64,000 nt of DNA from a virus: positions 1 through 64,000 of IMG/VR virus record IMGVR_UViG_3300027963_000066; one strand, given 5' to 3'. Under the pieces are notes generated by a model. That model was not told the origin of the DNA. It did not search any database and was given only the letters and a program-made list of their open reading frames with translations. A program made the position numbers and the translations under genes. The first letter of the stretch is position 1. Each line of letters starts with the position of its first letter. Below, one piece after another: positions 43,716 through 63,810 of this stretch.

Positions 43716-43744
43716 ATTATACGCTGTTAAAATAATTAAGTCAA
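43716..43744 (-). promoter_or_regulatory. Sigma70 promoter for tRNA-Arg(UCG)
   Basis: TTGACT-N17-TATAAT. Confidence 0.75.
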
Positions 43745-43772
43745 AAAAATAGGACTCCGAAGAGTCCTATTT
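43743..43772 (-). terminator. Intrinsic terminator after the TROVE-like gene and element 1
   Basis: AUAGGACUC-UUCG-GAGUCCUAU followed by a U-run. Confidence 0.9.
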
Positions 43773-43773
43773 A

Positions 43774-43929
43774 ACAGGCTAGTTGTCTACTTTGAGTTTA
43801 TATCGGTGTCAATATCGAAACACACCTATCTAGTTTGTCTTCAGCTATAACCTTCAAAGCCCATACAGGCTCCAGTTATAACCAACTCCCTAGCATTCCT
43901 TTAATATTAAAGGTTGCTGAACCTAGCCT
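43774..43929 (-). ncRNA. CAGCAA-stem element 1 (Y-RNA-like candidate)
   Basis: 5' AGGCUAG-G-UUCAGCAA ... CUAGCCU-GU 3', with internal hairpins. Confidence 0.7.
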
Positions 43930-43940
43930 TATAACACTAT

Positions 43941-45332
43941 TTATAGAACGCTGTAGCGATCTACATCAACAGTGGCTAGCATGATACCGTATGGAGTCAT
44001 GTCAGTACCACTTAGGATACCCTTCATAACTGCTGGACTAAACCCGCTAACCAACGCGGTACCGCGCTTGTCGAACTTAACAGGGACATTGTCCCGGCTG
44101 TTCAGGTTCCAGAATACAATGTTTGGAACTTCGTATCCTGCATCCTTGTACTTACGCTTGATCATTTGGTGAGCAGAGTCATCAAAACTTACGCATTGAT
44201 CAAACTGCATATCCGAAAGGATCAGCAAAGTCTTTGGCATGTCACTTGCGTTCACACCGCCCTTGACTGCGATGCGTAGGATTTCGTCAAACGCCGCATG
44301 TAGGTTAGTGTTCATGCCCCAGTCGCTAGAGTTCATTTGTGCCATCTTTTCAGATAGCGAACCCTTAACGACCTGTGCCTTTGGCTTAGCACTGAAAGTC
44401 AAGAATGTATCCTTGAATACACCTGTGTTCTTATCAGCACAGTACAGACCCAACGACAGGGCAATATCGATGCACATTAGGTTAGCGTTTCCGCCAACTG
44501 GGCATGACATCGAACCGCTAACGTCAACCAAAGGCATAACGCTGGCATCGCCAATGTAGTTTGGCAACGATGCCCATTGAGCATCTGCTACCACACTGTC
44601 GCCACCATGACGCAAGGTCTTGATGACATCGTATGGGTAAACCGCACTAGCGTTTACCTTGTCAGTACCTGCAGTCAAACGAGCCTTGTAGGCAGTGTAA
44701 GACGCAGAAGCATTCTTGGCAAATGCCTTGTTGTAACGAGCACTGGCTAGACTTGGCAACTTACCGAATTCGATAGAATCCCAGTCCTTTGCACACATCT
44801 TGCTTTCGACAACATTGGTCAACGCAACCAAACTCTTACGGTAGAACTTTGGAGTCATACCATAGAAGTTACGGATTTCAACCGCGATTGGGCCTTGACG
44901 AGGCATCCATTTGGCACACAGACCGTTGCGTTCACGCAGTGCATCACCGATTAGGGTATAGGCCATGTGTTTGAACTTTTCAGTCTTGAATACCAGCAAG
45001 TCGTCCCAACGGCCGAACTCGCTTACGAAAGGAAGAACTGCTTCCAGAGTTTCTGGATGCAACTTTTCCAGATGTACAAGTACATCACGGAACAGCTGAC
45101 GTTCACCTGCGCCACCACGGACATCACGTGACCAGAACGCAATCTTCATTGCAAGGTCACTGTCTTCCTGGAAAGCCTTTTCGAAGTCTGCGGTCACAGA
45201 CTTACCACGGCTTGCACCAATCTTGTAGAACAAATCTACAAGGGCATTGCCCGAATGGGCCTTTGCCTTCATACCGTTTTCGGTACGAGCTACCTCTGGG
45301 GTAGACTTAACTGCTTCAGCGAAAGTGATCAT
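43941..45332 (-). CDS. TROVE/Ro60-like RNA-binding protein with vWA domain (DUF2828-type)
   Basis: RDVRGGAGER, GRWDDLL, AKWMPR; MIDAS VDVSGSM, NTNL, LSDMQFD, IVFWNL. Confidence 0.8.
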   Translation of the reverse strand: MITFAEAVKSTPEVARTENGMKAKAHSGNALVDLFYKIGASRGKSVTADFEKAFQEDSDLAMKIAFWSRDVRGGAGERQLFRDVLVHLEKLHPETLEAVLPFVSEFGRWDDLLVFKTEKFKHMAYTLIGDALRERNGLCAKWMPRQGPIAVEIRNFYGMTPKFYRKSLVALTNVVESKMCAKDWDSIEFGKLPSLASARYNKAFAKNASASYTAYKARLTAGTDKVNASAVYPYDVIKTLRHGGDSVVADAQWASLPNYIGDASVMPLVDVSGSMSCPVGGNANLMCIDIALSLGLYCADKNTGVFKDTFLTFSAKPKAQVVKGSLSEKMAQMNSSDWGMNTNLHAAFDEILRIAVKGGVNASDMPKTLLILSDMQFDQCVSFDDSAHQMIKRKYKDAGYEVPNIVFWNLNSRDNVPVKFDKRGTALVSGFSPAVMKGILSGTDMTPYGIMLATVDVDRYSVL

Positions 45333-45355
45333 TTCGTTCTCCTTTCTTTAAAATG

Positions 45356-45408
45356 ACAGGATGCTTTTTTTACTATAAGAAAAGTATAAAAATTGCTGTA
45401 AGCATCCT
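45356..45408 (-). ncRNA. CAGCAA-stem element 2, in the 5' UTR of the TROVE-like gene
   Basis: 5' AGGAUGCU-UACAGCAA ... AGCAUCCU-GU 3'. Confidence 0.75.
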
Positions 45409-45437
45409 AAAAACTTTTTGTTTCTTTCTAAGCATTA

Positions 45438-45466
45438 ATTATAGCGTATAAGTCATTGTTTGTCAA
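45438..45466 (-). promoter_or_regulatory. Sigma70 promoter driving element 2, the TROVE-like gene and element 1
   Basis: Perfect TTGACA-N17-TATAAT. Confidence 0.88.
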
Positions 45467-45483
45467 CAACTTTATTAGCCAAA

Positions 45484-46089
45484 TTACATTGTAGGACCGT
45501 TCCCGGACTTAAAACCTACACTACCACCCTCTGCTTCAATGCGAGCAATAACATCTTCAAACAAGATAGGAGCAAAGTCTGGAAGTTGTTCTACGCAAAC
45601 GCAGTGGTATCTAACATCAATCTCATCGCTGTACAAGACTTCTCCAGTACGGGCATCGACACCTCTCGCCTTCATAACTCTGTTGGCGTGTAAGTGTCCG
45701 TGTATATTACAACCAAACCTGCCAAGGCTTGCTTCGTGAACAGGAATATGACTTAAAATAAGTCCATTCATGACATGATACGCTCGTAATTCACGGAAGT
45801 ACTGCCTGTACTCGTCATCACGGAAAATGTCGTGGTTACCACGGATCAAAACCTTGTCACCGTTTAATCGGGCCAATGTCTTTAATGCCTTTCGATTAAT
45901 AACCACATCGCCCAAATGATATATTTTATCTGTAGGCTTAACACGGTCGTTCCAAGCCTTGACCATTGCTTCGTCCATCTCATCTGCGTCATCCCATGGC
46001 CTTAACTTTGTAACACCATCGTTACGTGTGAAGCGGCATACACCTGTGTGACCAAAGTGTGTGTCGCTGACTAAAAATACACTAGGCAT
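45484..46089 (-). CDS. Calcineurin-like metallophosphoesterase
   Basis: SDTHFGH, HLGD, GNHD, SHIP, HGHLH. Confidence 0.9.
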   Translation of the reverse strand: MPSVFLVSDTHFGHTGVCRFTRNDGVTKLRPWDDADEMDEAMVKAWNDRVKPTDKIYHLGDVVINRKALKTLARLNGDKVLIRGNHDIFRDDEYRQYFRELRAYHVMNGLILSHIPVHEASLGRFGCNIHGHLHANRVMKARGVDARTGEVLYSDEIDVRYHCVCVEQLPDFAPILFEDVIARIEAEGGSVGFKSGNGPTM

Positions 46090-46099
46090 ATTCGCCCCC

Positions 46100-47125
46100 T
46101 TAAATAATGTTAACTAACGATTTTACCCACCACAAGTTTTTATCCAATGTGACCTTTGTCTTAGCTTCTATAATTATAGCATCTTTAACAATTTCTGGAT
46201 AATAATTTTTATCAAAAATAATTTCTTTGGCTCTTGCTTGATTACGTATTATTTTGTCTTTAACTTTGTCATTTAGCATCTTAAGCTCACCGATGGGTGT
46301 TTGGCATAGATTCTTAAAATTTTCAATGATCATACCAAACCTTTTTTCCATATCTGGCTCTTGATCAAAACTGTAGTCAAATATTTCGTCGTATAATTCA
46401 AACCCTAGATCTTGAATATGTCTAAAGAATCCGTGTCCAGACGCAGTTAAAAATGGTTTACCCACTAATAATGCCGTGGCAGTTTTTTCTGTTATAAAAA
46501 TATCTTTGTGAACACTTTCACTGATCAGTTGCGCAAATGATTCATGATACTGAGCGGGAATTAAGTGCTGATCAGTGTGACCAGCAAATCCATCAAGATC
46601 TAAAATTTGAGGAACAAAATATTTAAAATCATATGCAGGGTTTGGTTGTGACCACGAAACGTTGGCAAACTGTAGTAGATCATGTTTAGCAACCTGATCG
46701 ATCAGATAACATCTATGCCAATGAGGTTTATGATTAAGATAAACAAAATGTTTTTTAAATTCTAAATCCGTTTTTATTTCTAATCTAGTTTTCTTTCGAA
46801 TGACCAATTCGAAATATGTTTTCTTCAACCAACAAGTTGGCCAGAAATGTATTTCTACATTAGGGTGCGGCGGAGGAGCATCAACACTTGCTATTCCTGA
46901 AGTGATAACAAATAGTTTTTTGTTACTTTCAGTAAGAGCCGTTACAAGCCTATCCCAGTATTTAAAATCTTCATTGACCAATGACCAATATTGATATTCG
47001 TTGTGAGCAAATAAAATTACAGCATCCTTATCAGTAGTTCGGATACGATCCGGAATGGTAAGTTTAAAATCATCGGAATCCCATATATCAAAACACAGGT
47101 ATTTTAATTCTTGTGATAAAATCAT
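46100..47125 (-). CDS. Hypothetical protein (glycosyltransferase-like)
   Basis: HR..L, SES...FITEKT, GFELY..FDYSFD motifs. Confidence 0.55.
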   Translation of the reverse strand: MILSQELKYLCFDIWDSDDFKLTIPDRIRTTDKDAVILFAHNEYQYWSLVNEDFKYWDRLVTALTESNKKLFVITSGIASVDAPPPHPNVEIHFWPTCWLKKTYFELVIRKKTRLEIKTDLEFKKHFVYLNHKPHWHRCYLIDQVAKHDLLQFANVSWSQPNPAYDFKYFVPQILDLDGFAGHTDQHLIPAQYHESFAQLISESVHKDIFITEKTATALLVGKPFLTASGHGFFRHIQDLGFELYDEIFDYSFDQEPDMEKRFGMIIENFKNLCQTPIGELKMLNDKVKDKIIRNQARAKEIIFDKNYYPEIVKDAIIIEAKTKVTLDKNLWWVKSLVNII

Positions 47126-47145
47126 AATGATGCTATATCCTATTT

Positions 47146-47610
47146 TTATACTGCATACCAAATTTCCTTAAACCCTTCTTCTTCTGAAGGCATTTCAAAA
47201 CTTGCCAGCATTCCTTCTATTACAGCATCCGGAATGTCTTTCCCAGGACGGCCGTCCAATCGACGCTTTAATTCAAGCCTTGACGGTGTTTCAAATACCA
47301 CAGCAATATGATCGTAGCCGGGCAACATGTTAAATTTACGCAGACGACTTGTTACGGTAGTACTAGTTTGATCCCAAATAATGTCTCGACCCGCTTCTCG
47401 AGCTTTAACAACATCGCCTGCCATTAGATTAACACATTCTGGCATGACCTCAGTAAAAACTTCACTGTAGGTTTTGCCCATATCTTTGGCAAATTTTTCA
47501 ACATAGACATCGGTGCTGATATAGGCACAGTCGCCTGCCCAATCTTGATTAGCTACCCAGGTACTTTTACCAGAACCAGGCACTCCGACCAATTGATAAC
47601 ATTTAGGCAT
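47146..47610 (-). CDS. P-loop kinase (AAA_33/polynucleotide kinase-like)
   Basis: GVPGSGKST, ISTD, WDQT, R...R lid, EEGF. Confidence 0.8.
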   Translation of the reverse strand: MPKCYQLVGVPGSGKSTWVANQDWAGDCAYISTDVYVEKFAKDMGKTYSEVFTEVMPECVNLMAGDVVKAREAGRDIIWDQTSTTVTSRLRKFNMLPGYDHIAVVFETPSRLELKRRLDGRPGKDIPDAVIEGMLASFEMPSEEEGFKEIWYAV

Positions 47611-47773
47611 TAATGTACCGCTTCCTTAACATTGACTTCGCACTCGATTACCCAATTGTTAAATTCGGTAAACTTGTTTACTTCTACTCCAAGTCCGACT
47701 GCTTCGTTTACAAAATGCTGTAAGAGTACATTGTACAATGCATCGGGCATTGTGTCTTTATCAAATTTAATTT

Positions 47774-48061
47774 TCATTCTTCAACTCCAAAATGTTTTAA
47801 GATATTCTGCTCACAATGAACAGGTATGTACGTTACTGAATCTTGAACCCAATGTCGTTCTGGAGTATGCGGTAGAGTTTTAGCAACCAAAGCACATTCT
47901 CTCACAATCAACTCGGCGAACTTTTCGTTAAACTGTGTATGCCAACCCACGTGGCCATCTTCCCAAATCTTGCCAGGAGTCTTGCTTCTAACAGGTCCAG
48001 TATATGTTTCATTCACATAGTCACCAGCCTGTAGAGCAAGTTGTTTAATTCGTTCGTTCAT
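47774..48061 (-). CDS. Hypothetical protein
   Basis: MNERIKQLA...EKFAELIVREC phage-type pattern. Confidence 0.6.
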   Translation of the reverse strand: MNERIKQLALQAGDYVNETYTGPVRSKTPGKIWEDGHVGWHTQFNEKFAELIVRECALVAKTLPHTPERHWVQDSVTYIPVHCEQNILKHFGVEE

Positions 48062-48252
48062 TACCAATTCTCCACACCAGAAATTTCAGTTTTAAACTCG
48101 CCATCTAGTCCGTTAATGTTAGTATGTACAACTAAACTAGTAACACTACCAATTCCGCTAGAATTATCTTGCAGTAATTCGAAGCTAGTGGCATCTGGAA
48201 ATTTGTCCATAGTCTCTAAAATTTTAACAACTTCTTCTCTACATAAAAACAT
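48061..48252 (-). CDS. Hypothetical protein
   Basis: Coupled ORF. Confidence 0.55.
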   Translation of the reverse strand: MFLCREEVVKILETMDKFPDATSFELLQDNSSGIGSVTSLVVHTNINGLDGEFKTEISGVENW

Positions 48253-48815
48253 TATACATCTCCTTCTAATTTCCTACGCTCCCTGCGTTCCGCGGCCAAC
48301 GTAAAAACCTTTTCGTTGTCATTAGTCCAATCAATTGCTTTTGCAGGCACAATCAAACCAGAGTCGAGCGTCACACCGTTGATGGTGTGAGGCTCGTTCT
48401 CATCATAGGTCCAACCCAAATGCCGCATCATACGATGCTTGACGCACAGATTAGGACTACGGAATACTTCGGTATCATCGAATCCCATCATGACGCCGAC
48501 TTCGCAAACTGCACCACTACGGCATACACCTGCTACACAATGAACGATAACGTTCATGTGATTGTCTAGTGCATGTTGTAACAACTGTGCCAACTTGGCC
48601 GCCTGCTCATGACTACACCGCATTTCTTCGTCTAAGCATTCGTCTTTTTCTTCAATGTCCAAAAATTGGAATTGATGTACTTCTTTGAATTTGTACAGAG
48701 GTGTTGGAAAATCACCAGGAGGATCCACAATTTGGATCAGCATGGCATTCTCGCCCGGGTTGATGTGGAACCCTTTTTTGATGTCACTCAGTGCAACGTT
48801 TTGAATCCATGGCAT
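48252..48815 (-). CDS. Cys-dependent (PTP/dual-specificity-like) phosphatase
   Basis: VHCVAGVCRS (CX5R). Confidence 0.82.
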   Translation of the reverse strand: MPWIQNVALSDIKKGFHINPGENAMLIQIVDPPGDFPTPLYKFKEVHQFQFLDIEEKDECLDEEMRCSHEQAAKLAQLLQHALDNHMNVIVHCVAGVCRSGAVCEVGVMMGFDDTEVFRSPNLCVKHRMMRHLGWTYDENEPHTINGVTLDSGLIVPAKAIDWTNDNEKVFTLAAERRERRKLEGDV

Positions 48816-48835
48816 ATCTTTTCTCCTTATGCACT

Positions 48836-48864
48836 ATTATACTAGGTTTTTTACCAGAAGTCAA
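48836..48864 (-). promoter_or_regulatory. Sigma70 promoter
   Basis: TTGACT-N17-TATAAT. Confidence 0.75.
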
Positions 48865-49454
48865 CTAATTAGACTGTTGTTTCTAAACAAAAAATTGTTT
48901 CTAGCTGTTTGATATTGTTCAACATCTAGTTCCCAAACAGTTTGATCGGTATAAAAAAGTTTTACCTTTTCCTCTAGGCATTTTACAATGCCCTGTCGTT
49001 CTAACAATTTAAACGTCCTATGGCTCTTATTCATACTGGGAATGTCTGGGTTATCCCAATTAGTTGTTACTACAAATTTAGTATACCCTACTTCTTTTGC
49101 CCAATCGATTTCTTTTGGTACATGATGTAAGAACGTTATGCTGTTCATGTGTGTTTTGGAAACCACATTTAAAAAGTTTTGATATTCTGGTATAGTGGCA
49201 CCTCTAAATAATATCCTATAAACTTTTTCTCCAATTTCTGGCAATGGGTGGCATCCACTTACGGAAACAACTTGATCGTCGGCATAGGTTAAGAAAAATT
49301 GGCCACCTAGATCTAAACACCAATCTAATTTTAGTGCCTCGGCGCTGGCATTGTTTTTAAAGCCATGGGATGAGCATTTTTTAAAATATTGTTCAAGATC
49401 ACACCGCAGTTGATCTCTATACTTAACAGTGGTTAGCCTTTCTGTGGGTTCCAT
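48861..49454 (-). CDS. Hypothetical protein (GNAT-like possible)
   Basis: ORF coupled to AMP-binding gene. Confidence 0.5.
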   Translation of the reverse strand: MEPTERLTTVKYRDQLRCDLEQYFKKCSSHGFKNNASAEALKLDWCLDLGGQFFLTYADDQVVSVSGCHPLPEIGEKVYRILFRGATIPEYQNFLNVVSKTHMNSITFLHHVPKEIDWAKEVGYTKFVVTTNWDNPDIPSMNKSHRTFKLLERQGIVKCLEEKVKLFYTDQTVWELDVEQYQTARNNFLFRNNSLIS

Positions 49455-50170
49455 AGATCTACCTCTTTATTGGTTCGTCCAACATAATATAAAATATCGT
49501 TTTGTACAACAACTTGATCCTGGGTAGGGTACCATCCTTCATAAATGCAGATGTCTCCCTTGACCAGTAATTCATCATTGACTATCTTGTAGTGGCAATG
49601 TTTGTTTCTTCCCATGATAGTAGTATCGGCAGGTGCAGATTCTTTTAGATAATATACTTCATCAAGATCTTCAAATGTAATATTAATAGCAATAGGGCCT
49701 ACTTCACTCATGCCCCAATTGACCATAAATTTTGCTCCCTTGGCAACAAATGCTTCTATGATATCCCAGGTCACCGGATCAGCACCGCAGGTAATAAAAA
49801 TTCCACTGAGGTCTAACTCTTGAAACCCCTTGGTTAACATAATAGCCTTGGCATGTTTGGGGGTAATGTGAGTGTGCGTGTAATTTTTAATGTCACGTAC
49901 AAAATCATATGCTGAAAAATTTACAACATCGACATGTGCTCCTACGGCCAATGCAGGCAAAGTCTGTGCCAATAGTCCACCAGCATGGGTAGTTTTGCAA
50001 CAGGTATAAACTCTACTCTTTGGCCGTATGCCTTGCGCCACAGCCGCCACACGACTGCTAATGGCCAATTTGTCAGGGTTTTGAAAATAAGGTTTTGGCT
50101 CTCCGCTGGTACCACTACTATAAATGGTAATACCTTTTTCGAGAATATCTTTAAAATTAATCTGCATCAT
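49433..50170 (-). CDS. Truncated AMP-binding (adenylate-forming) enzyme
   Basis: YSSGTSGEPK, WGMSE, GR motifs. Confidence 0.75.
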   Translation of the reverse strand: MMQINFKDILEKGITIYSSGTSGEPKPYFQNPDKLAISSRVAAVAQGIRPKSRVYTCCKTTHAGGLLAQTLPALAVGAHVDVVNFSAYDFVRDIKNYTHTHITPKHAKAIMLTKGFQELDLSGIFITCGADPVTWDIIEAFVAKGAKFMVNWGMSEVGPIAINITFEDLDEVYYLKESAPADTTIMGRNKHCHYKIVNDELLVKGDICIYEGWYPTQDQVVVQNDILYYVGRTNKEVDLWNPQKG

Positions 50171-50208
50171 ATAATTATAACATCTTTAAATTGGTCAATA
50201 AATACCCC

Positions 50209-53833: not shown

Positions 53834-54646
53834 TTATTTAAGACGCCGTTTGCAATGATCAATTAATAGTGATATCCAATCATTGGAAACTCCTATTTCT
53901 TTTTCTAACACAGCAAGATTTTTATTATTGTAAGAGATAATTTTGTCCTGATCAATCGATATGTTAAGATGCTGTTCTATGATATATTGATTAAGTCTAT
54001 TGCCGCAAATCAGTTGCCCTATATCAAAATAAAACCAGCCATCGTACTTGGTAGTAGACCATGTCTTATACCATTTGTATCTTGTTCTAATATAGTGTTC
54101 AAGATCTGCCTGCCCGTTAATCAATATTCCTAATTTGTAGGCAAGGAATTTCCAATTTTCATAAAGATCAGCATCGAGCAAGTCTGTCAGCTGGTGCGAA
54201 TATTGATGCCCTGAGTATATTAGATCTTCTATTTCTTTTCGTCTTGCGGGCCAGGCCTGTGAGTCGCTGATGTTTGATTTGATCCAACTTAGACAATAGG
54301 CACGATCGACATGTTCAGTATCCGATGAATACAATCGTATACCTTGACAGGGCAAGTTGGTCATTGAAATGTTGTTAAACCAATGTGTAGGAACACAAAA
54401 TGATTGATCACCATACGTTGATTCTAACTTGGCAACTTGTTCAGTGTTAATTGGCCATTCTTTGTTGCTGGGAAAAGTTTTTACATCTAAATTGATGGCC
54501 GCTAAATAATTTGGAAACAGTACTCTATTAGATTCTGTAGTCGCGAGATCAGGCACGTGGTAAAAATCTTTGCCGCTTGCGTGTACAAGACTAACAAAAA
54601 ATTCACCAAACATTCCTGGTTGATAACTTACGATAATGGGCTTCAT
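53834..54646 (-). CDS. Hypothetical protein
   Basis: 270-aa ORF. Confidence 0.6.
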   Translation of the reverse strand: MKPIIVSYQPGMFGEFFVSLVHASGKDFYHVPDLATTESNRVLFPNYLAAINLDVKTFPSNKEWPINTEQVAKLESTYGDQSFCVPTHWFNNISMTNLPCQGIRLYSSDTEHVDRAYCLSWIKSNISDSQAWPARRKEIEDLIYSGHQYSHQLTDLLDADLYENWKFLAYKLGILINGQADLEHYIRTRYKWYKTWSTTKYDGWFYFDIGQLICGNRLNQYIIEQHLNISIDQDKIISYNNKNLAVLEKEIGVSNDWISLLIDHCKRRLK

Positions 54647-55246
54647 ATGATCAATTTAAAAAATTTACAATTTGATATTACTACTTATGGTCAAAATCTA
54701 GCCTTGACATTTTCTGGAGGCTCTGATAGCTCACTGTTATTTTATTTGGCCGCACGACAAATACTAGATGAAAAATTAGATATCAATCTAAATTTATTTG
54801 TCACAGAACGTTTTAATCAACCGGTACCCTACGCCTTTGCGGTACATAAACGAATATGTGATCTGTTGGGATGCCACCAGTTTACTTTAACAGAAATGAA
54901 GCGTTCTGAATTACCGCAGGATGCAGTTATAGGGCCACTGGTACAATATCTAACTGATGTAAAAACTTTTGACAGTATCCTTTCTGGCAAAAACAAATAT
55001 CCTGATCACATACGCCCATTCCATTTTGCCTGGTTTGAAGAAACTGAAATCCTTAGATATCCTTTTAAAGAGTATACTAAGGATACGTTAATCGATTGTT
55101 TTTATCAGTGTGGGATAGAAGAAGTGTTATCAATGACACACTCCTGTGGTTGGCAGAGTGCAGGTTATTGTGGGAAATGTTTTAACTGTCAAGAACGTGA
55201 GTGGGCCTATAGTCAATTGCCCCATAAATTAAACATGGGGGCATAA
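54647..55246 (+). CDS. QueC-like PP-loop ATPase
   Basis: FSGGSDSS; THSC...CGKCFNCQER zinc motif. Confidence 0.75.
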   Translation: MINLKNLQFDITTYGQNLALTFSGGSDSSLLFYLAARQILDEKLDINLNLFVTERFNQPVPYAFAVHKRICDLLGCHQFTLTEMKRSELPQDAVIGPLVQYLTDVKTFDSILSGKNKYPDHIRPFHFAWFEETEILRYPFKEYTKDTLIDCFYQCGIEEVLSMTHSCGWQSAGYCGKCFNCQEREWAYSQLPHKLNMGA

Positions 55247-57426: not shown

Positions 57427-57442
57427 GCAGGTATTTATTTTA

Positions 57443-57519: not shown

Positions 57520-57522
57520 AAA

Positions 57523-57642
57523 ACAGGTTCTCATTTTTTGTGCTACCACTACACCAACACCGCTGACCAAGCAGTGCCCAGGATTCGAACCTGGCCCGTC
57601 TTTTTTACAGAAAGATTTTAATAAGATTGCTGAAAAGAACCT
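57523..57642 (-). ncRNA. CAGCAA-stem element 3 carrying a circularly permuted tRNA-Tyr(GUA)-like domain (YrlA-like)
   Basis: AGGUUCU..UUCAGCAA; UCUUU-CUGUAAA-AAAGA; CCAGG-UUCGAAU-CCUGG; GCACUGCU-UGGUC-AGCGGUGU; UG; GUGU-AGUGGUA-GCAC; AGAACCU-GU. Confidence 0.85.
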
Positions 57643-57657
57643 AGATGGTCAAATAAA

Positions 57658-57766
57658 ACAGGATGAGCTGTCATGGCCGGGAATCGAACCCTATTTCAGA
57701 CAATGTCCCCAAATGGACGGCCTCGCGAAATGTGGAGCGAGTAAAATGGTTTGCTGTAATCATCCT
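57658..57766 (-). ncRNA. CAGCAA-stem element 4 with T-loop module
   Basis: AGGAUGA-U-UACAGCAA ... GGG-UUCGAUU-CCC ... UCAUCCU-GU. Confidence 0.75.
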
Positions 57767-57782
57767 AAAACTAAATATTTGT

Positions 57783-58283
57783 ATGAACCGACTTCTTGAA
57801 TATTTGGATTTGCCTAAATTGCCTGCCGAACTGATCGAAGAAGCAAAGTTAAGCACACAGATCAATCCAAATGTTTTTATTTTTAAAGACTATTCAGCTT
57901 ACAAAATCTTTGATGCTACTGAATCAATCTCAGAATACACTCGTAGTATATTTGATTTTCCGCACCATACAAAAGTACAATTGATATCAGGGGACATCGC
58001 CATACACATTGATTATGGTCGATCAGTAGTTTATAATTATCTAATTGACTATCCTGGAGAAATAGCTTACTCTTGCCACTATCAAACTAGCGATCCTGCT
58101 AGTTTGATCAGTAAGGAAGCATTAACACCAGACTGCTGGTCTAGATTAGATGTCAGTGTTTATCACAATCTTTTAGGAGTCAAGGTTCCGAGATTGTTTA
58201 TCAGTGTTGCTCCTATAGAAAAAATATCCAAAGAAGATATTCGACGGAGCAGACAATGGTACAAAGAATTTGGAGCGGGATAG
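57783..58283 (+). CDS. Hypothetical protein (cupin/oxygenase-like HxD...H)
   Basis: TAAATA-N5-ATG; IHID...YHN..RL; 3' end overlaps tRNA-Gly. Confidence 0.55.
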   Translation: MNRLLEYLDLPKLPAELIEEAKLSTQINPNVFIFKDYSAYKIFDATESISEYTRSIFDFPHHTKVQLISGDIAIHIDYGRSVVYNYLIDYPGEIAYSCHYQTSDPASLISKEALTPDCWSRLDVSVYHNLLGVKVPRLFISVAPIEKISKEDIRRSRQWYKEFGAG

Positions 58284-58344
58284 GAGAATCGAACTCCTGA
58301 CTAAACCTTGGCAAGGTTTCGTTTGACCATTAAACTAATCCCGC
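58271..58344 (-). tRNA. tRNA-Gly(GCC)
   Basis: Cloverleaf; loop UUGCCAA; U73. Confidence 0.95.
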
Positions 58345-58357
58345 ATGTTTTTATTTA

Positions 58358-58447
58358 TGGTCCCCCACTGAGGAATCGAACCTCATCCTGGACCTTATCT
58401 AGATTAATCGGTTATAAGCCGACCTGCTCTCCATGAGCTAGCGGGGG
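58358..58447 (-). tRNA. tRNA with UAU (Ile) anticodon and long variable arm
   Basis: CCCCCGC/GUGGGGG-A-CCA; loop CUUAUAA; about 20-nt extra arm. Confidence 0.8.
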
Positions 58448-58460
58448 AATAAATATCGTT

Positions 58461-59327
58461 ATGATTAACATCTTAAAAGAATACACCAGTAAAGATTTGA
58501 GTAAAAAACTGATCCTGTCATTGCATGATCAAGCCGTTGTTGAAAGTGTGATAATGCCCGAGTCTGCACTGGGACCGTCGGCACTTTGCATCAGCGTTCA
58601 GGTAGGTTGTGCAGTAGGATGTACTTTTTGCAAAACTGGTCAAGATGGTCTGAAGCGTAATTTATCCGCTGACGAAATTATCGATCAATTGACCATCGCC
58701 GAAGAACAAAAATTTATAGATTTTATAGTGTTCATGGGCATGGGCGATTCTGCCCACAACATTGATGCTGTACTAACGGCAGTTGAAGAATTTGTTCATC
58801 GAGGAAAAAATAAAGATAAACTTCTTGTCAGTAGCATAGGCACAGATAAGTTTTTTGATAAATTAGAATCTGCAGTGGTTAAACCCAGACTAGCAGTCAG
58901 CCTGCATTCTGCAATAGATGCCACTAGAAAATCTATAATTCCCATGGCCAATTTAATGAGTGTACAAGAATTGATCGAACGCTCTCAACAGTATGCACAA
59001 TTAACCAATCGAAAAATCATGTATCAATTGACCATGCTGGCTGGAGTCAATGATACCGATGAAGAGATTTCAACAGTTATAGATCAATTAACACCATACA
59101 AACAGCATTCTATTATACAGATAATACCTTGGAATTTTATATCCGATGCAATGTTTACCTGTACACCCCAATCTAAAATTAAAGAAATAGTTGATCGATT
59201 TAGGAATCTAGATTTTGATGTTAGGCAAAGATATTCTTTTGGACAAGATATAGGCGCGGCCTGCGGCCAACTGTCGTCACAAAATCAATTGGCTCCCCAG
59301 GGTGGGATCGAACCACCGACACCCTGA
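58461..59327 (+). CDS. RlmN/Cfr-family radical SAM RNA methyltransferase
   Basis: CISVQVGCAVGCTFCKTG, VFMGMGD, SLH, GVND, DIGAACGQL. Confidence 0.85.
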   Translation: MINILKEYTSKDLSKKLILSLHDQAVVESVIMPESALGPSALCISVQVGCAVGCTFCKTGQDGLKRNLSADEIIDQLTIAEEQKFIDFIVFMGMGDSAHNIDAVLTAVEEFVHRGKNKDKLLVSSIGTDKFFDKLESAVVKPRLAVSLHSAIDATRKSIIPMANLMSVQELIERSQQYAQLTNRKIMYQLTMLAGVNDTDEEISTVIDQLTPYKQHSIIQIIPWNFISDAMFTCTPQSKIKEIVDRFRNLDFDVRQRYSFGQDIGAACGQLSSQNQLAPQGGIEPPTP

Positions 59328-59365
59328 TTAACAGTCAGGTGCTTCTACCGCTGAGCTACTAGGGA
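59290..59365 (-). tRNA. tRNA-Asn(GUU)
   Basis: Cloverleaf; loop CUGUUAA. Confidence 0.95.
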
Positions 59366-59371
59366 ATAAAA

Positions 59372-59447
59372 TGGTTGCGGGACTTGGATTCGAACCAAGG
59401 ATGGCAAAGGCTTATGAGACCTCGCTGGTGACCAGACCCTTCCCGCG
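59372..59447 (-). tRNA. tRNA-Met(CAU), probably initiator
   Basis: Loop CUCAUAA; C1:A72 mismatch. Confidence 0.85.
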
Positions 59448-59500
59448 ATATTCGTTTACACACTACTTATCCTATTGTACACCGTGTGTAAGGGTGACAT

Positions 59501-59577
59501 TGGTCGGAGTACAAGGATTCGAACCTTGGGCCCCTGCGTCCCAAACGCAGTGCTCTACCAGACTGAGCTACACTCCG
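59501..59577 (-). tRNA. tRNA-Pro(UGG)
   Basis: Cloverleaf; loop UUUGGGA. Confidence 0.95.
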
Positions 59578-59584
59578 AATAAAC

Positions 59585-59659
59585 TGGTACCTCGTGACAG
59601 GGTCGAACTGCCGACATTCGCCGTGTAAAGGCGCTACTCTACCACTGAGTTAACGAGGC
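59585..59659 (-). tRNA. tRNA-Val(UAC)
   Basis: Cloverleaf; loop UUUACAC. Confidence 0.95.
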
Positions 59660-59667
59660 AAAAACCG

Positions 59668-59901
59668 TTATCTAATTTTTTTCAAATAGTCTTTGAGAGA
59701 ATAATCACCATTCTCAAATTCTTTAAGAGCAGTTACGCATGGATATACCTGATCTCTGCTTTCACTATTCTTATGTTGCCTTGCGATTTCTCTGGCTCGA
59801 GTGGCCAAGGCCAGGACCATAGAAAATCTATCATTGCCGGAATTTTTAACACATTTTTCAATATCTATCTCTGTGCCACGACTAAGTGTTTTTACTTTCA
59901 T
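59668..59901 (-). CDS. rpoZ: RNA polymerase omega subunit-like protein
   Basis: GAGGA RBS; NDRFSMVLALATRAREI...VTALKEFENG resembles RpoZ NRFxLVLxAAxRARQ...ALxEI. Confidence 0.65.
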   Translation of the reverse strand: MKVKTLSRGTEIDIEKCVKNSGNDRFSMVLALATRAREIARQHKNSESRDQVYPCVTALKEFENGDYSLKDYLKKIR

Positions 59902-59921
59902 ATTGTCCTCTTTTAAAAAAC

Positions 59922-59995
59922 TGGAGCGGGGTAAGAGAATCGAACTCTCAGCATTAGCTTGGAAGGCTAAGGTATTACCACTATACGAACCCCGC
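59922..59995 (-). tRNA. tRNA-Gly(UCC)
   Basis: Cloverleaf; loop CUUCCAA. Confidence 0.95.
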
Positions 59996-59997
59996 AT

Positions 59998-60106
59998 ACT
60001 TTATTGAAACACATTGTTGCGGCCGCAGGATACCGAGTGATGTAGTGAGTCGGAATCAAACCTTCCCAATCTACACAGTGCTCTCCACAATGCGCTTCAA
60101 TAAAGT
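59998..60106 (-). ncRNA. Long-terminal-stem ncRNA candidate (family B)
   Basis: actttattgaaacacattgt ... acaatgcgcttcaataaagt inverted repeat. Confidence 0.55.
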
Positions 60107-60308
60107 GTCTAGCTACCTACACCACATAGGCCCTAGACTGAGCAGTTACTCTGTCCATAACATTTATTCTTTTGGAAAGGTGTTATACCTCACCTAATGC
60201 GTTCCCGCCACTCCTCTACAGAGTACGGATGGTCAATGCATTACACACCTGGCGCTCTCTATGGTGACTGCCCCACCCTCCTTCGCTAACGGGCAGGAGT
60301 GCCCGGGT
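60107..60308 (-). ncRNA. Structured non-coding RNA candidate
   Basis: GC-rich, no ORF, multiple nested helices. Confidence 0.5.
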
Positions 60309-60313
60309 TTTCA

Positions 60314-60377
60314 ACAGGTTAATACTAGTTTAACGTCCTAGCAGACAGCCATTTTTTTTAATCGCTGTAATTAACCT
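60314..60377 (-). ncRNA. CAGCAA-stem element 5
   Basis: AGGUUAAU-UACAGCGA ... CUAG-GACGUUAAA-CUAG ... AUUAACCU-GU. Confidence 0.72.
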
Positions 60378-60382
60378 AAAAC

Positions 60383-60456
60383 TGGTGCCCCTACACAGAA
60401 TCGAACTGCAAATTGCGGATTACAAAACCGCCGTTATACCATTTAACTATAAGGGC
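60383..60456 (-). tRNA. tRNA-Thr(UGU)
   Basis: Cloverleaf; loop UUUGUAA. Confidence 0.92.
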
Positions 60457-60462
60457 TCTAAC

Positions 60463-60556
60463 TGGCAGTGACGGAGGGATTCGAACCCTCGGACCCGGTT
60501 TATGCCGAATCGTCTTCTTAGCAGGAAGGTGGTTTAAACCGCTCACCCACGTCACT
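60463..60556 (-). tRNA. tRNA-Ser(GCU)
   Basis: Loop CUGCUAA; long variable arm; G73. Confidence 0.92.
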
Positions 60557-60562
60557 ATAATT

Positions 60563-60638
60563 TGGTGCCCCAGAGGAGACTCGAACTCCTAGGATTTGGT
60601 TTCTAAGACCAACACGTATACCATTCCGTCACCGGGGC
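60563..60638 (-). tRNA. tRNA-Leu(UAG), short variable loop
   Basis: Loop CUUAGAA; Leu-type D loop; A73. Confidence 0.88.
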
Positions 60639-60654
60639 ATTATACTCTACTTAT

Positions 60655-60743
60655 CATATAGAAACACACTTATCACTTTTCTCGACAGTGGTGTGAAGTC
60701 CTTACAACCTAAATTACATTTAGGCTAAATGTGTTTTTATATG
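60655..60743 (-). ncRNA. Long-terminal-stem ncRNA candidate (family B)
   Basis: catatagaaacacactta ... taaatgtgtttttatatg inverted repeat. Confidence 0.55.
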
Positions 60744-60816
60744 GTAGGGGCACAGAGAATCGAACTCTGATTAATAGGTTAAAAGCCTACTACTTTAGCC
60801 GTTAAGTTATACCCCC
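60742..60816 (-). tRNA. tRNA-Lys(UUU)
   Basis: Loop CUUUUAA. Confidence 0.93.
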
Positions 60817-60819
60817 ATA

Positions 60820-60894
60820 TGGTCCACGCTCTGAGAATCGAACTCAGTTAGTCCGGTTAAGAGCCGGGTACTTCGCCACTAAAGTTTAGCGTGG
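60820..60894 (-). tRNA. tRNA-Lys(CUU)
   Basis: Loop CUCUUAA. Confidence 0.9.
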
Positions 60895-60957
60895 ATGGAT
60901 TCGTAATTGATTTTCTTTTACGTGCCATCCAGGACCATACGGGGGTCTAGGATGACA

Positions 60958-60978
60958 CTAACGTTTAGCACGTTTCAT
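60958..60978 (-). CDS. Six-codon minigene MKRAKR
   Basis: AAGGAG RBS 6 nt before ATG AAA CGT GCT AAA CGT TAG, followed by a hairpin. Confidence 0.5.
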   Translation of the reverse strand: MKRAKR

Positions 60979-61007
60979 GTCGTTCTCCTTTTGAACATTA
61001 AAAAATT

Positions 61008-61082
61008 TGGCGGTCTCAAGGGGTAACGATCCCCTTCTTCAACAGTGACAGTGTTGTGTGCGTCCATGAACACTTTGAGACC
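61008..61082 (-). tRNA. tRNA-Asp(GUC) with atypical T loop
   Basis: Loop CUGUCAC; G73; T loop AUCGUUA. Confidence 0.85.
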
Positions 61083-61351
61083 ATTAATTATATTGTCGAG
61101 TTATGGACAGTAATCGCCCTACTGTCGTTTGTCAACCGTATCATATTCTATTATGTTTAGCATAATATTATTGAAGTTCTGATACCGTCCAGGACGCTTA
61201 TTGCTAAGACCGCTAAGTCTATGATTCGTCGTCTCCGCTTCGGTTAAGGTTATAGCAGAACTAAGTTCTACAATGAGCCGGCACTCACCTATATTGCATT
61301 GAATGACACTGGGCTGGTGAACACAGCCATTTTCCTTGACAACATAATTAA
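61083..61351 (-). ncRNA. About 270-nt ncRNA candidate closed by a long terminal stem
   Basis: attaattatattgtcgag ... cttgacaacataattaat pairing, exactly filling the Leu-Asp tRNA spacer. Confidence 0.55.
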
Positions 61352-61437
61352 TGGTACCCGAGACCGGACTCGAACCGGTACGCTTTTGAATGCGGCAGAT
61401 TTTAAGTCTGCTGTGTCTACCATTCCACCACTCGGGC
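61352..61437 (-). tRNA. tRNA-Leu(UAA)
   Basis: Loop CUUAAAA; long variable arm. Confidence 0.95.
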
Positions 61438-61442
61438 AAAGT

Positions 61443-61518
61443 TGGCGTCCCGTACGAGATTCGAACTCGTGTACTCGCCGTGAAAGGGCGATATCCTAGG
61501 CCTCTAGATGAACGGGAC
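61443..61518 (-). tRNA. tRNA-Glu(UUC)
   Basis: Loop CUUUCAC. Confidence 0.95.
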
Positions 61519-61579
61519 GTAAAAATTGCAATTAATTTTTAAAGAGCTATGACAGCTATTTCTAACTGTCTAAGTATAT

Positions 61580-61608
61580 ATTGTACTGCCATTTTACCCT
61601 TGTGTCAA
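61580..61608 (-). promoter_or_regulatory. Sigma70 promoter for the tRNA array
   Basis: TTGACA-N17-TACAAT. Confidence 0.75.
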
Positions 61609-61632
61609 GTCTAAAATTGCCTAAATAGTCAA

Positions 61633-62229
61633 ATGCTCTACACTGAATTTGAATCTATTGCCTTGCCCTATCTACAGTCTAAAGACCGTGTAGCAGTTAT
61701 GGTCAGCGGCGGATTTGACAGTGCAGTCTTGTTGTACAGTCTGTGTCTAGTAAAGTCCTCACTCAAACTTGCTGTCAGCATCAGTACTTTTACAGTACCA
61801 TTACACAATGATTCTGAACGATATTCAAGAATGGTCACCGCATGGGTGGGTAACAGATTTTGTCTAGACCTAACTCCTACAATATGTGGCGATCCCGATC
61901 TTGCACATAATCAAGTGGTCAAAAGTGGGATTGCTCATGCTGTAAGCATTTGCCCGAATATAATCATCGCCGAGACTACTAATCCGTCACATTTGACAAA
62001 TCTTAGTTCAGCTCCTGCACGTACACGAGCTCTTAAAATATTCCAACCATTTATCAATTGGACTAAAAAAGAAACTGTGAAATTATCTATTGATTTGGAT
62101 CTAGACGACCTTGTGTCGCTTACACACAGTTGTACGGAAAAAACTGTGCGATGTAATCAGTGCTGGCAATGCCAAGAGCGGGCCTGGGGATACGCAGAAA
62201 ACGCATACCCTGATCCGGGCTGTTATTAA
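61633..62229 (+). CDS. QueC-like PP-loop ATPase (second paralog)
   Basis: VSGGFDS; THSC...CNQCWQCQER; TAAATA-N5-ATG. Confidence 0.75.
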   Translation: MLYTEFESIALPYLQSKDRVAVMVSGGFDSAVLLYSLCLVKSSLKLAVSISTFTVPLHNDSERYSRMVTAWVGNRFCLDLTPTICGDPDLAHNQVVKSGIAHAVSICPNIIIAETTNPSHLTNLSSAPARTRALKIFQPFINWTKKETVKLSIDLDLDDLVSLTHSCTEKTVRCNQCWQCQERAWGYAENAYPDPGCY

Positions 62230-62877
62230 TTATTTTGTAGGATAAATGTAATGCTTTTGCAGTTCTGGGCGTAACGGTTCATCCCATTTACCTGCACGAC
62301 AAATATCAACCATGCCTTTTGGCACTCCAAACTCTAGCATTTCTTCATAAGAGCTAAGTTCGTAACCTTTGGCACGAGGTTGCATCATGCAGGGCATGCC
62401 CATGTTGGTCCACTGTCTATCGGGATCGGTCATGTCTTCGTAGTGCGTATCTCTGGTAGGAGTACGTTTGAAGATGGTCCTTCCTCGATCCGGAGTTTCA
62501 AAAATAGTATTGTTTCGATGAAAAATTTCAGCGGTGTCTTCACACTCTAGTATAGCCTGCATTCTTTGCAAATGATCTAGATAGCGACCATCCGGTCCTA
62601 CGCCGTTGGTACATCGTTCTATACGTCCCGGAATTCGTTCAACAATTATGGGGTCTTCATAATTTTCTTCGTGTACACCTACAATGTCGCTGAAGTTATC
62701 ACTGATCCAACGCTTCTCAACGTACCAATCGTTTTCAGTAAGCACAGTGACTTCACCTCGATAGGTTTTTTTATAACCCAGACTTCCGCCCTCAAAGGCC
62801 TCGTATTCTAAATCGTCTCCGATTTTACAAGTTAATCGTTGATTCGGTGTGTCAAAAACCCAGTCTAGTAGCATCAT
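62230..62877 (-). CDS. Hypothetical protein
   Basis: GGAG RBS, TAAATA upstream. Confidence 0.6.
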   Translation of the reverse strand: MMLLDWVFDTPNQRLTCKIGDDLEYEAFEGGSLGYKKTYRGEVTVLTENDWYVEKRWISDNFSDIVGVHEENYEDPIIVERIPGRIERCTNGVGPDGRYLDHLQRMQAILECEDTAEIFHRNNTIFETPDRGRTIFKRTPTRDTHYEDMTDPDRQWTNMGMPCMMQPRAKGYELSSYEEMLEFGVPKGMVDICRAGKWDEPLRPELQKHYIYPTK

Positions 62878-62931
62878 AGTTGTTCAAACTCCATAAGTTA
62901 TATGTGTGTTTATTTATTAATAAATATTTGT

Positions 62932-63630
62932 ATGGATAGACTTAATTACAATTCAATATACAAAGGATTTTCAAAAAAATCTGTAGACTGGGTTTCCGGG
63001 GACACCCAAGAAAAATACAAAGAAAATTTATTATCACACAGATCCGAACTTGAAAAGCACGGGTGGATTGATAATAAATTCAATTACTCTTTTAATTCTG
63101 AAGGATTTAGATGTGACGAATTTTCATCAGATCCCACAGTTATGTTTTTAGGTTGTAGTTTTACTGTAGGCATCGGCATGCCTATAGAACAAACTTGGTC
63201 TTCACTGGTTGCCAAATCTCTTGATTTAAAATCAGCAAATCTTGGGCAGGGCGGCGGATCTAATGACACTGCTTTTAGATTAGGGGTTCATTGGATCCCA
63301 AAAATTAAACCTAAGCTAGTTGTATTGTTAGTAACACCGTACCATAGGTTTGAAATAGTGTCGTCTGGAATGATACACTTGATCACGCCTCAACACCATG
63401 CTGAACAATTTACTAATTTTATGGCCGAATGGGGATCTGATGATACTAATCCATATCATAATCGCCTTAAAAATGTATTAGCAATAAAACAGGTATGTGC
63501 AGAAAATCAAATCAAATTTGTCAAACATGACTGTAACCTTTTTCAAAGATTGGACCTAGCCAGAGACCTGGCTCACCCTGGTGTAATGTCTAATCAAAAG
63601 TTAGCAGAAGATATATTAAAATTAATATAG
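62932..63630 (+). CDS. SGNH-like protein (paralog of 55799..56548)
   Basis: NSEGFR, FLGCSFTVGIG, NLGQGGGSND, ARDLAHPG; TAAATA-N5-ATG. Confidence 0.65.
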   Translation: MDRLNYNSIYKGFSKKSVDWVSGDTQEKYKENLLSHRSELEKHGWIDNKFNYSFNSEGFRCDEFSSDPTVMFLGCSFTVGIGMPIEQTWSSLVAKSLDLKSANLGQGGGSNDTAFRLGVHWIPKIKPKLVVLLVTPYHRFEIVSSGMIHLITPQHHAEQFTNFMAEWGSDDTNPYHNRLKNVLAIKQVCAENQIKFVKHDCNLFQRLDLARDLAHPGVMSNQKLAEDILKLI

Positions 63631-63660
63631 TGGCAGGCGCATTAGGGATCGAACCTACTC
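63631..63660 (-). pseudogene. tRNA 3' fragment (T arm plus acceptor 3' strand and CCA only)
   Basis: UAGG-UUCGAUC-CCUA-AUGCGCCU-G-CCA, with no 5' half. Confidence 0.65.
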
Positions 63661-63671
63661 CAAATAAATAT

Positions 63672-63745
63672 TGGCAGAGGGTAATGGAATCGAACCATTA
63701 ATAGCGGAATCAAAATCCGCTGTTATACCATTTAACTAACCCCCA
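63672..63745 (-). tRNA. tRNA-Gln(UUG)
   Basis: Loop UUUUGAU; U1 start; G73. Confidence 0.9.
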
Positions 63746-63753
63746 ACAATAAA

Positions 63754-63810
63754 ACAGGTTGCTTATTTTTCAATTAAAAGTTGAATTGGTAAATTTGCTG
63801 AACGCAACCT
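63754..63810 (-). ncRNA. CAGCAA-stem element 6 carrying a Lys(UUU) anticodon stem-loop
   Basis: AGGUUGC-G-UUCAGCAA ... UUCAA-CUUUUAA-UUGAA ... GCAACCU-GU. Confidence 0.78.

Follow-up and report, generated by a model that had tools for sequence, protein, structure and literature searches.

A family of structured phage RNAs with a CAGC(A/G)A handle as candidate Y-RNA-like partners of a DUF2828/DUF7788 Ro60-like protein

Which RNAs, if any, accompany a Ro60-like protein encoded beside a phage tRNA cluster? The question is raised by a 64,000-nucleotide (nt) stretch of viral DNA (here, the window) that comprises positions 1-64,000 of the 75,995-nt IMG/VR viral contig IMGVR_UViG_3300027963_000066. 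The source is a large, uncultured, freshwater phage, and probably a jumbo phage because CheckV puts the contig at only 21% completeness. The window encodes a 463-amino-acid (aa) protein with DUF2828 and DUF7788 domains, and its gene is bracketed by two copies of an intergenic element of which four more copies lie among tRNA genes and a seventh lies just beyond the window. We consider it likely that the protein and the seven elements make up a second, undescribed ribonucleoprotein (RNP) of the Ro/Y-RNA type, in which the elements would serve as Y-RNA-like partner RNAs. Ro60 with its Y RNAs is a classic RNP, and the roles of such particles in bacteria and phages are only now emerging. An initial annotation of this DNA had offered a Ro/Y-RNA interpretation, of which the Ro60 fold, the RNA family, the gene linkage, and the noncanonical handle were borne out and the generality of tRNA-mimic cargo was not.

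The elements share one design. Each starts with UAGG and a variable stem strand of 4 to 5 nt, continues through an unpaired U(A/U)CAGC(A/G)A and a variable cargo, and ends with the complementary strand and CCUGU. The corresponding DNA pattern, AGG-N5-TWCAGCRA, occurred six times in the window, always on the minus strand, versus a mean of 0.20 in shuffled sequences, and none of 100 shuffles reached six. Over the full 75,995-nt record the pattern was found seven times on the reverse strand, never on the forward strand, and never in a control read backwards. In all seven copies a perfect complement of AGG plus N4 lay 45 to 150 nt downstream and was followed by GU, element lengths were 51 to 154 nt, and the terminal stem closed the element in every minimum-free-energy (MFE) fold. 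Thus, the six positions in the initial annotation, and the differing stems that it listed as always pairing around an invariant CAGC, were reproduced; the seventh copy, and a likeness to Dictyostelium Class I RNAs taken up below, had been overlooked. The elements and the unit around the Ro-like gene are as follows.

43747..43772, minus strand: intrinsic terminator with an 11-bp stem, a UUCG loop, and a U run, closing the unit (sequence)
43774..43929, minus strand: element 1, long (154 nt plus GU), directly 3' of the Ro-like gene stop codon (motif, stem, fold)
43941..45332, minus strand: gene for the 463-aa Ro60-like protein, with DUF2828 (TROVE-like helical ring) and DUF7788 (vWA with a complete MIDAS, or adhesion site that depends on a metal ion) (Pfam, PHROG 850, AlphaFold2, Foldseek)
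45356..45408, minus strand: element 2, short (51 nt plus GU), in the 5' leader of the Ro-like gene (motif, stem, fold, RF01414, R1)
45438..45466, minus strand: sigma-70-type promoter, TTGACA-17-TATAAT, heading the unit (12 of 12 consensus positions)
57523..57642, minus strand: element 3, handle plus permuted tRNA mimic (motif, stem, fold)
57658..57766, minus strand: element 4, handle plus 107-nt cargo with a T-arm-like hairpin, GGG-UUCGAUU-CCC (motif, stem, fold)
60314..60377, minus strand: element 5, short (62 nt plus GU), CAGCGA variant, directly after tRNA-Thr (motif, stem, fold)
63754..63810, minus strand: element 6, short (55 nt plus GU), between a tRNA-like gene and tRNA-Gln (motif, stem, fold)
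64471-64533 (5' motif 64518-64533), minus strand: seventh element, just beyond the window on G000:C1 (motif, stem)

The unit reads from the sigma-70 promoter through element 2, the open reading frame (ORF) at 43941-45332, and element 1 to the UUCG-loop terminator, as had been annotated. Element 2 begins 23 nt past the predicted transcription start and ends about 13 nt short of an AAGGAG ribosome site. The window holds 20 tRNA genes, all on the minus strand, with 13 more past its end, and the four interleaved copies that had been reported were indeed placed among the 20. The tRNA-cluster copies adjoin tRNA genes at a distance of a few nucleotides, and copies lie up to 20 kb away from the Ro-like gene.

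What the elements carry differs from copy to copy. Short elements have a small A/U-rich hairpin and an A-rich run as their sole cargo. The cargo of element 1 is kept among relatives (UGGAGC..GCUUUGAAGG, GUUUCGAU, AAAGUAGA) and is not tRNA-like, and an alignment of 12 homologues shows compensatory changes in its terminal stem. In its MFE fold, element 3 presents the parts of a tRNA in the order found in the bacterial RNA YrlA: a T arm (CCAGG-UUCGAAU-CCUGG), an acceptor-like stem of 8 bp capped by a loop of 5 nt, and a D arm (GUGU-AGUGGUA-GCAC). Elements 3 and 4 both carry tRNA-like parts, in line with the mention of tRNA parts among the cargo in the initial annotation.

Whether these elements are RNA structures was asked of a comparison set, this contig together with 73 IMG/VR loci encoding relatives of the 463-aa ORF at 38 to 98% identity. 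On the gene strand the 5' motif had 96 occurrences, and on the opposite strand none. A perfect 7-nt partner lay within 400 nt in 91 of the 96, whereas a stem-swap control gave a mean of 3.0 and a maximum of 8. The distinct elements numbered 71 and used 20 different N4 stems; the GU/GT end was present in 63 of the 71. A looser structural scan returned 219 hits on the gene strand, 32 on the opposite strand, and 25 to 27 on reversed sequence, with at least one hit in 68 of the 73 loci. Moreover, a U-G pair at the stem base was kept in 25 of 25 aligned sequences, and because of that pair and the strict strand bias the elements are read as RNA and not as a DNA repeat. We built a covariance model, R1, from 25 short elements of a single lineage; its pair counts are 100% by construction, since rows were picked for perfect stems, and the unbiased test is the stem-swap control. 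R1 scored elements 2 and 5, which are part of the model, at 60.9 and 46.9 bits, and recovered two copies outside it, element 4 (34.9 bits, E 1.7e-5) and the seventh element (55.8 bits). It also found copies in Listeria (E 4e-5), Campylobacter (E 0.029), and Bacillus (E 0.1) phages. We conclude that the elements form a genuine family of structured RNAs, in which the stem varies by compensatory change and the unpaired CAGC(A/G)A beside it stays invariant.

The family travels with the gene. An element ended no more than 300 nt upstream of the DUF2828-type gene in 55 of the 68 loci with room there, and 56 of 57 had an element on one side or the other within 1 kb, so that the association expected by the initial annotation in related genomes was found. 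In a reverse test, IMG/VR was scanned for the motif by sequence alone, which gave at least 134 stretches, and the DNA of 78 loci was analyzed. Among the matches listed, a DUF2828 homologue lay within 10 kb of 57 of 78 stem-paired instances, on the same strand in all 57, and near 3 of 21 unpaired, chance-like instances. Handle-type elements also adjoined the gene, on the gene strand, in all six named phage loci examined: three in Listeria LMTA-57, three in Escherichia phage mio (Felixounavirus), two in Campylobacter NCTC12673, two in Mycobacterium LeBron, five in Bacillus vB_BanS_Nate, and one in Cronobacter S13. Letters at the stem base vary by lineage (for example, AGAC..GUCUGG in mio), and what stays constant is a stem of 7 to 9 bp, 1 to 3 spacer bases, and CAGC(A/G)A. 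Most often the gene borders a tRNA cluster, yet in LeBron the surrounding 13.4 kb contain no tRNA gene, and two elements nevertheless lie directly 3' of the gene. Phage T5, with 24 tRNAs, has neither a DUF2828 homologue nor a CAGCAA-handle element in its tRNA cluster, for which positions 28,000-41,600 of the record were examined. We conclude that the family is linked tightly and strand specifically to DUF2828-type genes in distant phages.

The protein itself was annotated as a Ro-like core, and structure prediction agrees. At an E value of 0.01 or less, Pfam finds DUF7788 (3.2e-50) and DUF2828 (3.7e-28) in the 463-aa ORF and nothing else, and PHROG 850 ("RNA-binding protein") covers residues 1-461 at E 1.4e-150. 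A phmmer search of PDB sequences returned weak integrin hits and nothing else. An AlphaFold2 model built from 67 diverse homologues had a predicted local distance difference test score (pLDDT) of 90.5. In Foldseek, all 13 PDB hits at E values of 1e-3 or less were Ro60/TROVE chains aligned over the full length, with query-normalized template modeling (TM) scores of 0.38 to 0.67. VIA-align superposed residues 11-444 of the model on residues 12-537 of Xenopus Ro60 (1yvp_A) with a Z score of 21.9 and a root mean square deviation of 4.2 over 409 residues; the runner-up family reached a Z score of 10.9 with the vWA domain alone. Moreover, the MIDAS residues D270, S272, S274, T342, and D374 are invariant in the 67 sequences, as are many Arg and Lys residues of the helical half. 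The model thus supports a full Ro60 fold, TROVE ring plus vWA, in a protein from a separate sequence family.

That family is widespread. Relatives were detected by tblastn in 711 of 50,697 deposited phage records, and 6,419 relatives at E values of 1e-3 or less are present in a 50%-clustered library. Phages with the gene include FelixO1-like, P100/A511-like, Campylobacter, and mycobacterial phages. Some databases already call members "Ro-like RNA binding protein," and ROT/TROVE proteins in jumbo phages have been noted by Aravind's group (PMC7824862). The protein assignment is already known, and the RNA partner is the new part.

How far do these elements resemble the RNAs of known Ro systems? 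Ro60, or Rsr, occurs with YrlA RNAs in bacteria (Chen et al. 2014, PMC4201824). The Ro60 of Thermus phage phiLo (PDB 9KOP/9L5Y) binds Yrl RNAs whose 5'-3' stem flanks a bulge with a conserved CGAA motif, and it tethers PNPase in vitro (PMC12135203). The window resembles these systems in having a helical-repeat ring and a vWA domain with a MIDAS in the protein, and in having, beside the gene, candidate partner RNAs with a 5'-3' stem, an adjoining conserved unpaired motif, and a variable module. Some phage modules also share the T arm, closed acceptor, and D arm of YrlA. The handle differs: CGAA/GNCGAA-type motifs or a bulged helix are found there and CAGC(A/G)A here. Many phage copies are tiny (45 to 70 nt), have no tRNA-like part, and are scattered through tRNA clusters, unlike YrlA. 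Neither Y_RNA nor YrlA was found at gathering score in the window or at E values of 10 or less around the elements, and no Rfam family reached threshold on the handle. The comparison of sequences thus supports the earlier suggestion that the phage handle is distinct from the canonical Ro-binding and YrlA handles and may define an undescribed family.

The closest approach to YrlA is an element of LeBron. It scored 39.8 bits (E 2.5e-7) against the Rfam YrlA model, the best score of any phage element and short of the gathering score, which is 69. What aligns is the T arm, the closed acceptor, and the D arm, whereas the stem region of the model aligns poorly. Because LeBron aligns to the tRNA-like parts of YrlA and not to its stem, the same type of module appears to sit on a different handle beside a different Ro-type protein. 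We take this as the best indirect argument that the protein would read the handle. Separately, in Cronobacter S13 an oversized annotated tRNA-Ser (121 nt) and a tRNA-OTHER (113 nt) lie 3' of the Ro-like gene (L086 7896-8138), before the handle element at 8154-8288, and these oversized "tRNAs" may be tRNA-mimic RNAs instead of tRNAs. Small RNAs are also interspersed with the tRNA genes of T5, whose stable RNAs I, III, IV, 1, 2, 2H, 3, and X are in some cases tRNA-like and have no assigned function; T5 differs in having no DUF2828 homologue and no CAGCAA handle in that cluster.

Signs of expression come from several sources. Contigs from three lake-water metatranscriptome runs contain the Ro-like unit: one contig of 1,724 nt covers 43772-45410 with 1 mismatch, and two runs hold parts. 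Parts of the 20-kb stretch have no cover in the RNA-run contigs. The contig with these borders, X1, agrees with the window between 45410, where element 2 begins, and 43772, where element 1 ends, and then diverges; its loose end downstream, read on the minus strand, opens another handle element (AGGAUGAAUACAGCAG). The number of elements thus varies between strains, precisely at the borders of elements.

In Listeria phage CKA15, the protein CKA15_055 was detected in purified virions (20 peptides, 57% coverage) and matched to Rsr by HHpred, and three very abundant, apparently noncoding regions within 2 kb upstream were suggested to be Y RNAs (PMC12282133). CKA15_055 is homologous to the window protein, and the locus is laid out as in LMTA-57, with three handle elements between a TTGACA-17-TATCAT promoter and the gene. 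That report names no RNA motif or structure. A second Listeria observation concerns drum RNA (RF02958), which is present in the tRNA cluster of the Listeria phage (L081 1983-2081, 50.2 bits versus a gathering score of 43).

Campylobacter phage NCTC12673 produces a 158-nt RNA described as the "most densely transcribed feature" (PMC6024767). We place it at L221 1611-1768 (record positions 7110-7267), directly upstream of gp012, in which we recognize a paralogue of the Ro-like protein in truncated form (residues 50-206, 32% identity, E 1e-21). Folding gives this 158-nt RNA two hairpins closed by AGG..CCUG, and it has no CAGCAA. It is not counted as a family member and is kept as a lead only.

How might such a particle work? 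Each RNA would be cut from a longer transcript, either the mRNA of the Ro-like gene or a precursor of the tRNA cluster, and its 5' and 3' ends would pair into the closing stem of 7 to 9 bp. The stem would combine with the neighboring single-stranded U(A/U)CAGC(A/G)A and with CCUG(U) at the 3' end into a constant handle recognized by the protein, in parallel with the canonical reading by Ro60 of the Y RNA terminal stem and its adjacent conserved bulge. The middle would be an exchangeable module: short forms would have a small hairpin there, and long forms larger folds, among them a tRNA mimic of the YrlA type. By analogy to the Rsr/YrlA and Thermus-phage Ro60/Yrl/PNPase systems, the modules probably either gate the ring or link it to enzymes of the host or phage that handle RNA. 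In this way they would steer how tRNAs and other stable RNAs are turned over, quality controlled, or protected during infection, and the leader copy, element 2, may also permit autoregulation. A role in handling tRNAs or stable RNAs during infection, by exonuclease tethering or by RNA protection or repair, is plausible, and a decoy or tRNA-repair role is speculation.

A number of points weigh against a Ro/Y-RNA-type particle. RNA structure, family spread, gene linkage, and protein fold were obtained here, whereas processing to discrete RNAs, binding of handle RNAs by the protein, and role are what we infer. On the protein side, identity to Ro60 is 11 to 16%, the 463-aa protein has no match to Pfam TROVE (PF05731), and a profile of 67 homologues reaches Ro60 chains at E values of 0.06 to 0.14 only, through the vWA part. 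On the RNA side, R1 has no match at E values of 1 or less in the mio, LeBron, and S13 loci. Because R1 is too lineage specific, the cross-lineage element calls rest on our own scanner, which gives background hits in the same loci. T5 is the sole negative control and is one phage. tRNA-mimic cargo is in the minority: a T-loop-like motif was present in 8 of the 71 distinct elements, and short hairpins rich in A and U make up most of the cargos. Moreover, element 3 and the other window elements have no YrlA (RF02553) hit at E values of 10 or less, so that the likeness of element 3 is architectural only.

Expression and gene neighborhood add to these points. The metatranscriptome evidence consists of assembled contigs, which carry no ends, strand, or level and could reflect DNA carry-over. 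ROOL RNA (RF03087) matches L081 4470-5021 of LMTA-57 at 88.5 bits (E 2e-16; gathering score, 99.1). The match maps to about 26,236-26,727 of CKA15, which is CKA15_059-061, the most transcribed region in PMC12282133, and the most abundant CKA15 RNA is thus probably ROOL and not a Y RNA or three small ORFs. That report gives no coordinates, in its text or its supplement, that tie the other two abundant regions to handle elements. Finally, a scan of 139 ORFs in 16 sampled loci placed genes of the RNA ligase, CCA-adding, or RlaP types within about 6 kb of the Ro-like gene in only four. Examples of neighboring RNA-handling genes are RtcB, 1.3 kb downstream of the gene in Listeria phages, and a tRNA nucleotidyltransferase near the gene in S13. 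In the window the upstream neighbors are a phosphoesterase, a polynucleotide-kinase-like P-loop protein, and a DSP-type phosphatase, with a 353-aa protein between them (46100-47161). The 353-aa protein was considered as an RNA ligase and had no Pfam, PHROG, NCBIfam, or PDB sequence match, and Atlas pointed weakly to sugar-modifying enzymes. A kinase-ligase-phosphoesterase RNA-repair cassette in the window was rejected because the 353-aa protein is not a ligase.

Could the elements instead be signals that act in cis? Stems for processing or stability of the tRNA cluster, together with a translational operator in the leader, might be read by a host RNase or chaperone or by the protein on its own message. 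Such signals would fit the leader position of element 2, the frequent ending of an element just upstream of the gene, and the copies that adjoin tRNA genes. Plain processing stems, however, have no need of the long, conserved, partly tRNA-like cargos that the same handle carries, and the gene lies as far as 20 kb from some copies. The unpaired motif persists across Gram-negative, Gram-positive, actinobacterial, and Campylobacter phages, for which a co-inherited phage reader is the better fit, and the T5 tRNA cluster does without such elements. We regard cis-acting signals as an unlikely account of the family. Autoregulation through the leader copy is compatible with a Ro-like RNP and not exclusive to cis-acting signals.

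RNAs that act independently of the Ro-like protein are another option. They could be decoys or sponges for tRNA-binding enzymes or nucleases, or regulatory RNAs, and the linkage would then reflect a shared early tRNA region. Indeed, tRNA genes were present in the loci of 77 of 78 stem-paired instances, among the matches listed, and some cargos mimic tRNA. We nonetheless find it quite improbable that the protein is a bystander. The LeBron elements adjoin the gene without a tRNA gene nearby, the constant part is a non-tRNA handle that a decoy for tRNA enzymes would not need, and the Ro60 fold has such a partner RNA in every studied system (PMC4201824, PMC12135203).

That the elements are mobile or recombination DNA structures (miniature inverted repeats, attC-like cassette borders, or homing sites) that mark cargo swaps and have no RNA function is highly improbable: ends are constant and middles variable, copy number and cargo vary among close relatives (an additional copy follows element 1 in L010, L019, L024, and the X1 strain, for instance), and homing-endonuclease genes lie near some loci, but the arms differ within one genome and always pair, as expected of compensatory change and not of repeat copying, all 96 copies are on the transcribed strand, the U-G stem-base pair is sensible only in RNA, and no recombinase is consistently adjacent in the sampled loci. 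A self-cleaving ribozyme, retron, group I intron, or riboswitch is also unlikely, as Rfam lends no support, the cargo varies too much, and no reverse transcriptase lies nearby.

Do handle RNAs occur outside phages? In a permissive Rfam search, Dictyostelium Class I RNA (RF01414) was the only family matched by the short elements. Bit scores were 31.5 for element 2, 30.7 for element 6, 26.2 for the seventh copy, and 23.1 for a Listeria phage copy; these four matches are full length, on the correct strand, and below the gathering score of 41.5, and a further match scored 18.6. A 66.7-kb scan gave four RF01414 hits, all on handle elements and on the correct strand, and none elsewhere. Element 2 is identical to the RF01414 consensus in CUUACAGCAAUU and shares the A-rich run before the 3' strand and the terminal CUG(U).

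Class I RNAs are 42 to 65 nt long, start with AAG, end with CUGU, and have a 6-bp terminal stem that is kept by compensatory change and whose 5' strand is followed by an unpaired motif of 11 nt (Kjellin et al. 2021, PMC7919456). According to the same report they are unique to Dictyostelia, and their sole known direct binder is the RRM protein Rnp1A. The phage short forms (four of seven copies) are similar in length (51 to 62 nt), in their 27 to 36% G+C content, in their compensatory terminal stem, in the unpaired motif directly after the 5' strand, and in the 3' CUG(U). They differ in that the stem is 7 to 9 bp instead of 6 bp, in their subthreshold scores, in belonging to phage and not amoebal genomes, and in having a bacterial sigma-70-type promoter where Class I genes have a Dictyostelium upstream sequence element (DUSE) about 60 nt upstream.

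The likeness may reflect common descent, transfer, convergence on a similar reader, or chance. DUF2828 plus DUF7788 is also present in eukaryotes, as 21 longer homologues include plant and ascomycete proteins; only plant and fungal proteins are named among the 21, which is not evidence of absence from dictyostelids. Tentatively, and with some doubt, we suggest that phage handle RNAs and Class I RNAs could form one family whose shared reader would be the DUF2828/DUF7788 Ro-like branch. If so, Class I RNAs would be the Y RNAs of a second Ro-type RNP spanning phages and eukaryotes, an orphan eukaryotic RNA class and a large DUF family would gain a partner and a testable function, and the view of Class I RNAs as restricted to social amoebae would be overturned.

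No description of a CAGCAA-handle RNA family or of its link to this protein was found in the literature searched, though texts outside that search may differ, and Rfam 15 has no model for the family. With the elements described here, a second, sequence-distinct Ro-type protein family would gain a defined candidate RNA partner with a simple, mutable handle. The gene family extends to laboratory and biocontrol phages, so that binding, structure, and function are testable in tractable phage-host pairs. Handle RNAs also account for gaps left without annotation, and for odd "tRNA-like" calls, in the tRNA regions of many phages, and they would constitute a natural scaffold for the display of exchangeable RNA modules.

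The surroundings of the elements hold further features. At gathering scores Rfam found nothing in the window beyond tRNAs, and megablast of the locus against the phage collection gave no match. A 269-nt spacer between tRNA-Asp and tRNA-Leu (61083-61351, minus strand) folds at -72.4 kcal/mol and matches no RNA family; part of it (61146-61335) is present in a metatranscriptome contig at a depth of 11.3, and the spacer is possibly a further noncoding RNA. Between tRNA-Met and element 6, at about 63820-63911 on the minus strand, lies a tRNA-like gene with a long extra arm that scores 45 bits as tRNA-Sec (gathering score, 47) and for which ARAGORN makes no call. Three plus-strand ORFs (54557-55246, 58461-59327, and 61633-62229) are interspersed among tRNA genes of the minus strand. 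Two of them show a QueC-like match at the C terminus and the third is a radical-SAM protein, a hint of genes for 7-deazaguanine (queuosine-type) modification. QueC-like ORFs also lie near the Ro-like gene in loci L053 and L065.

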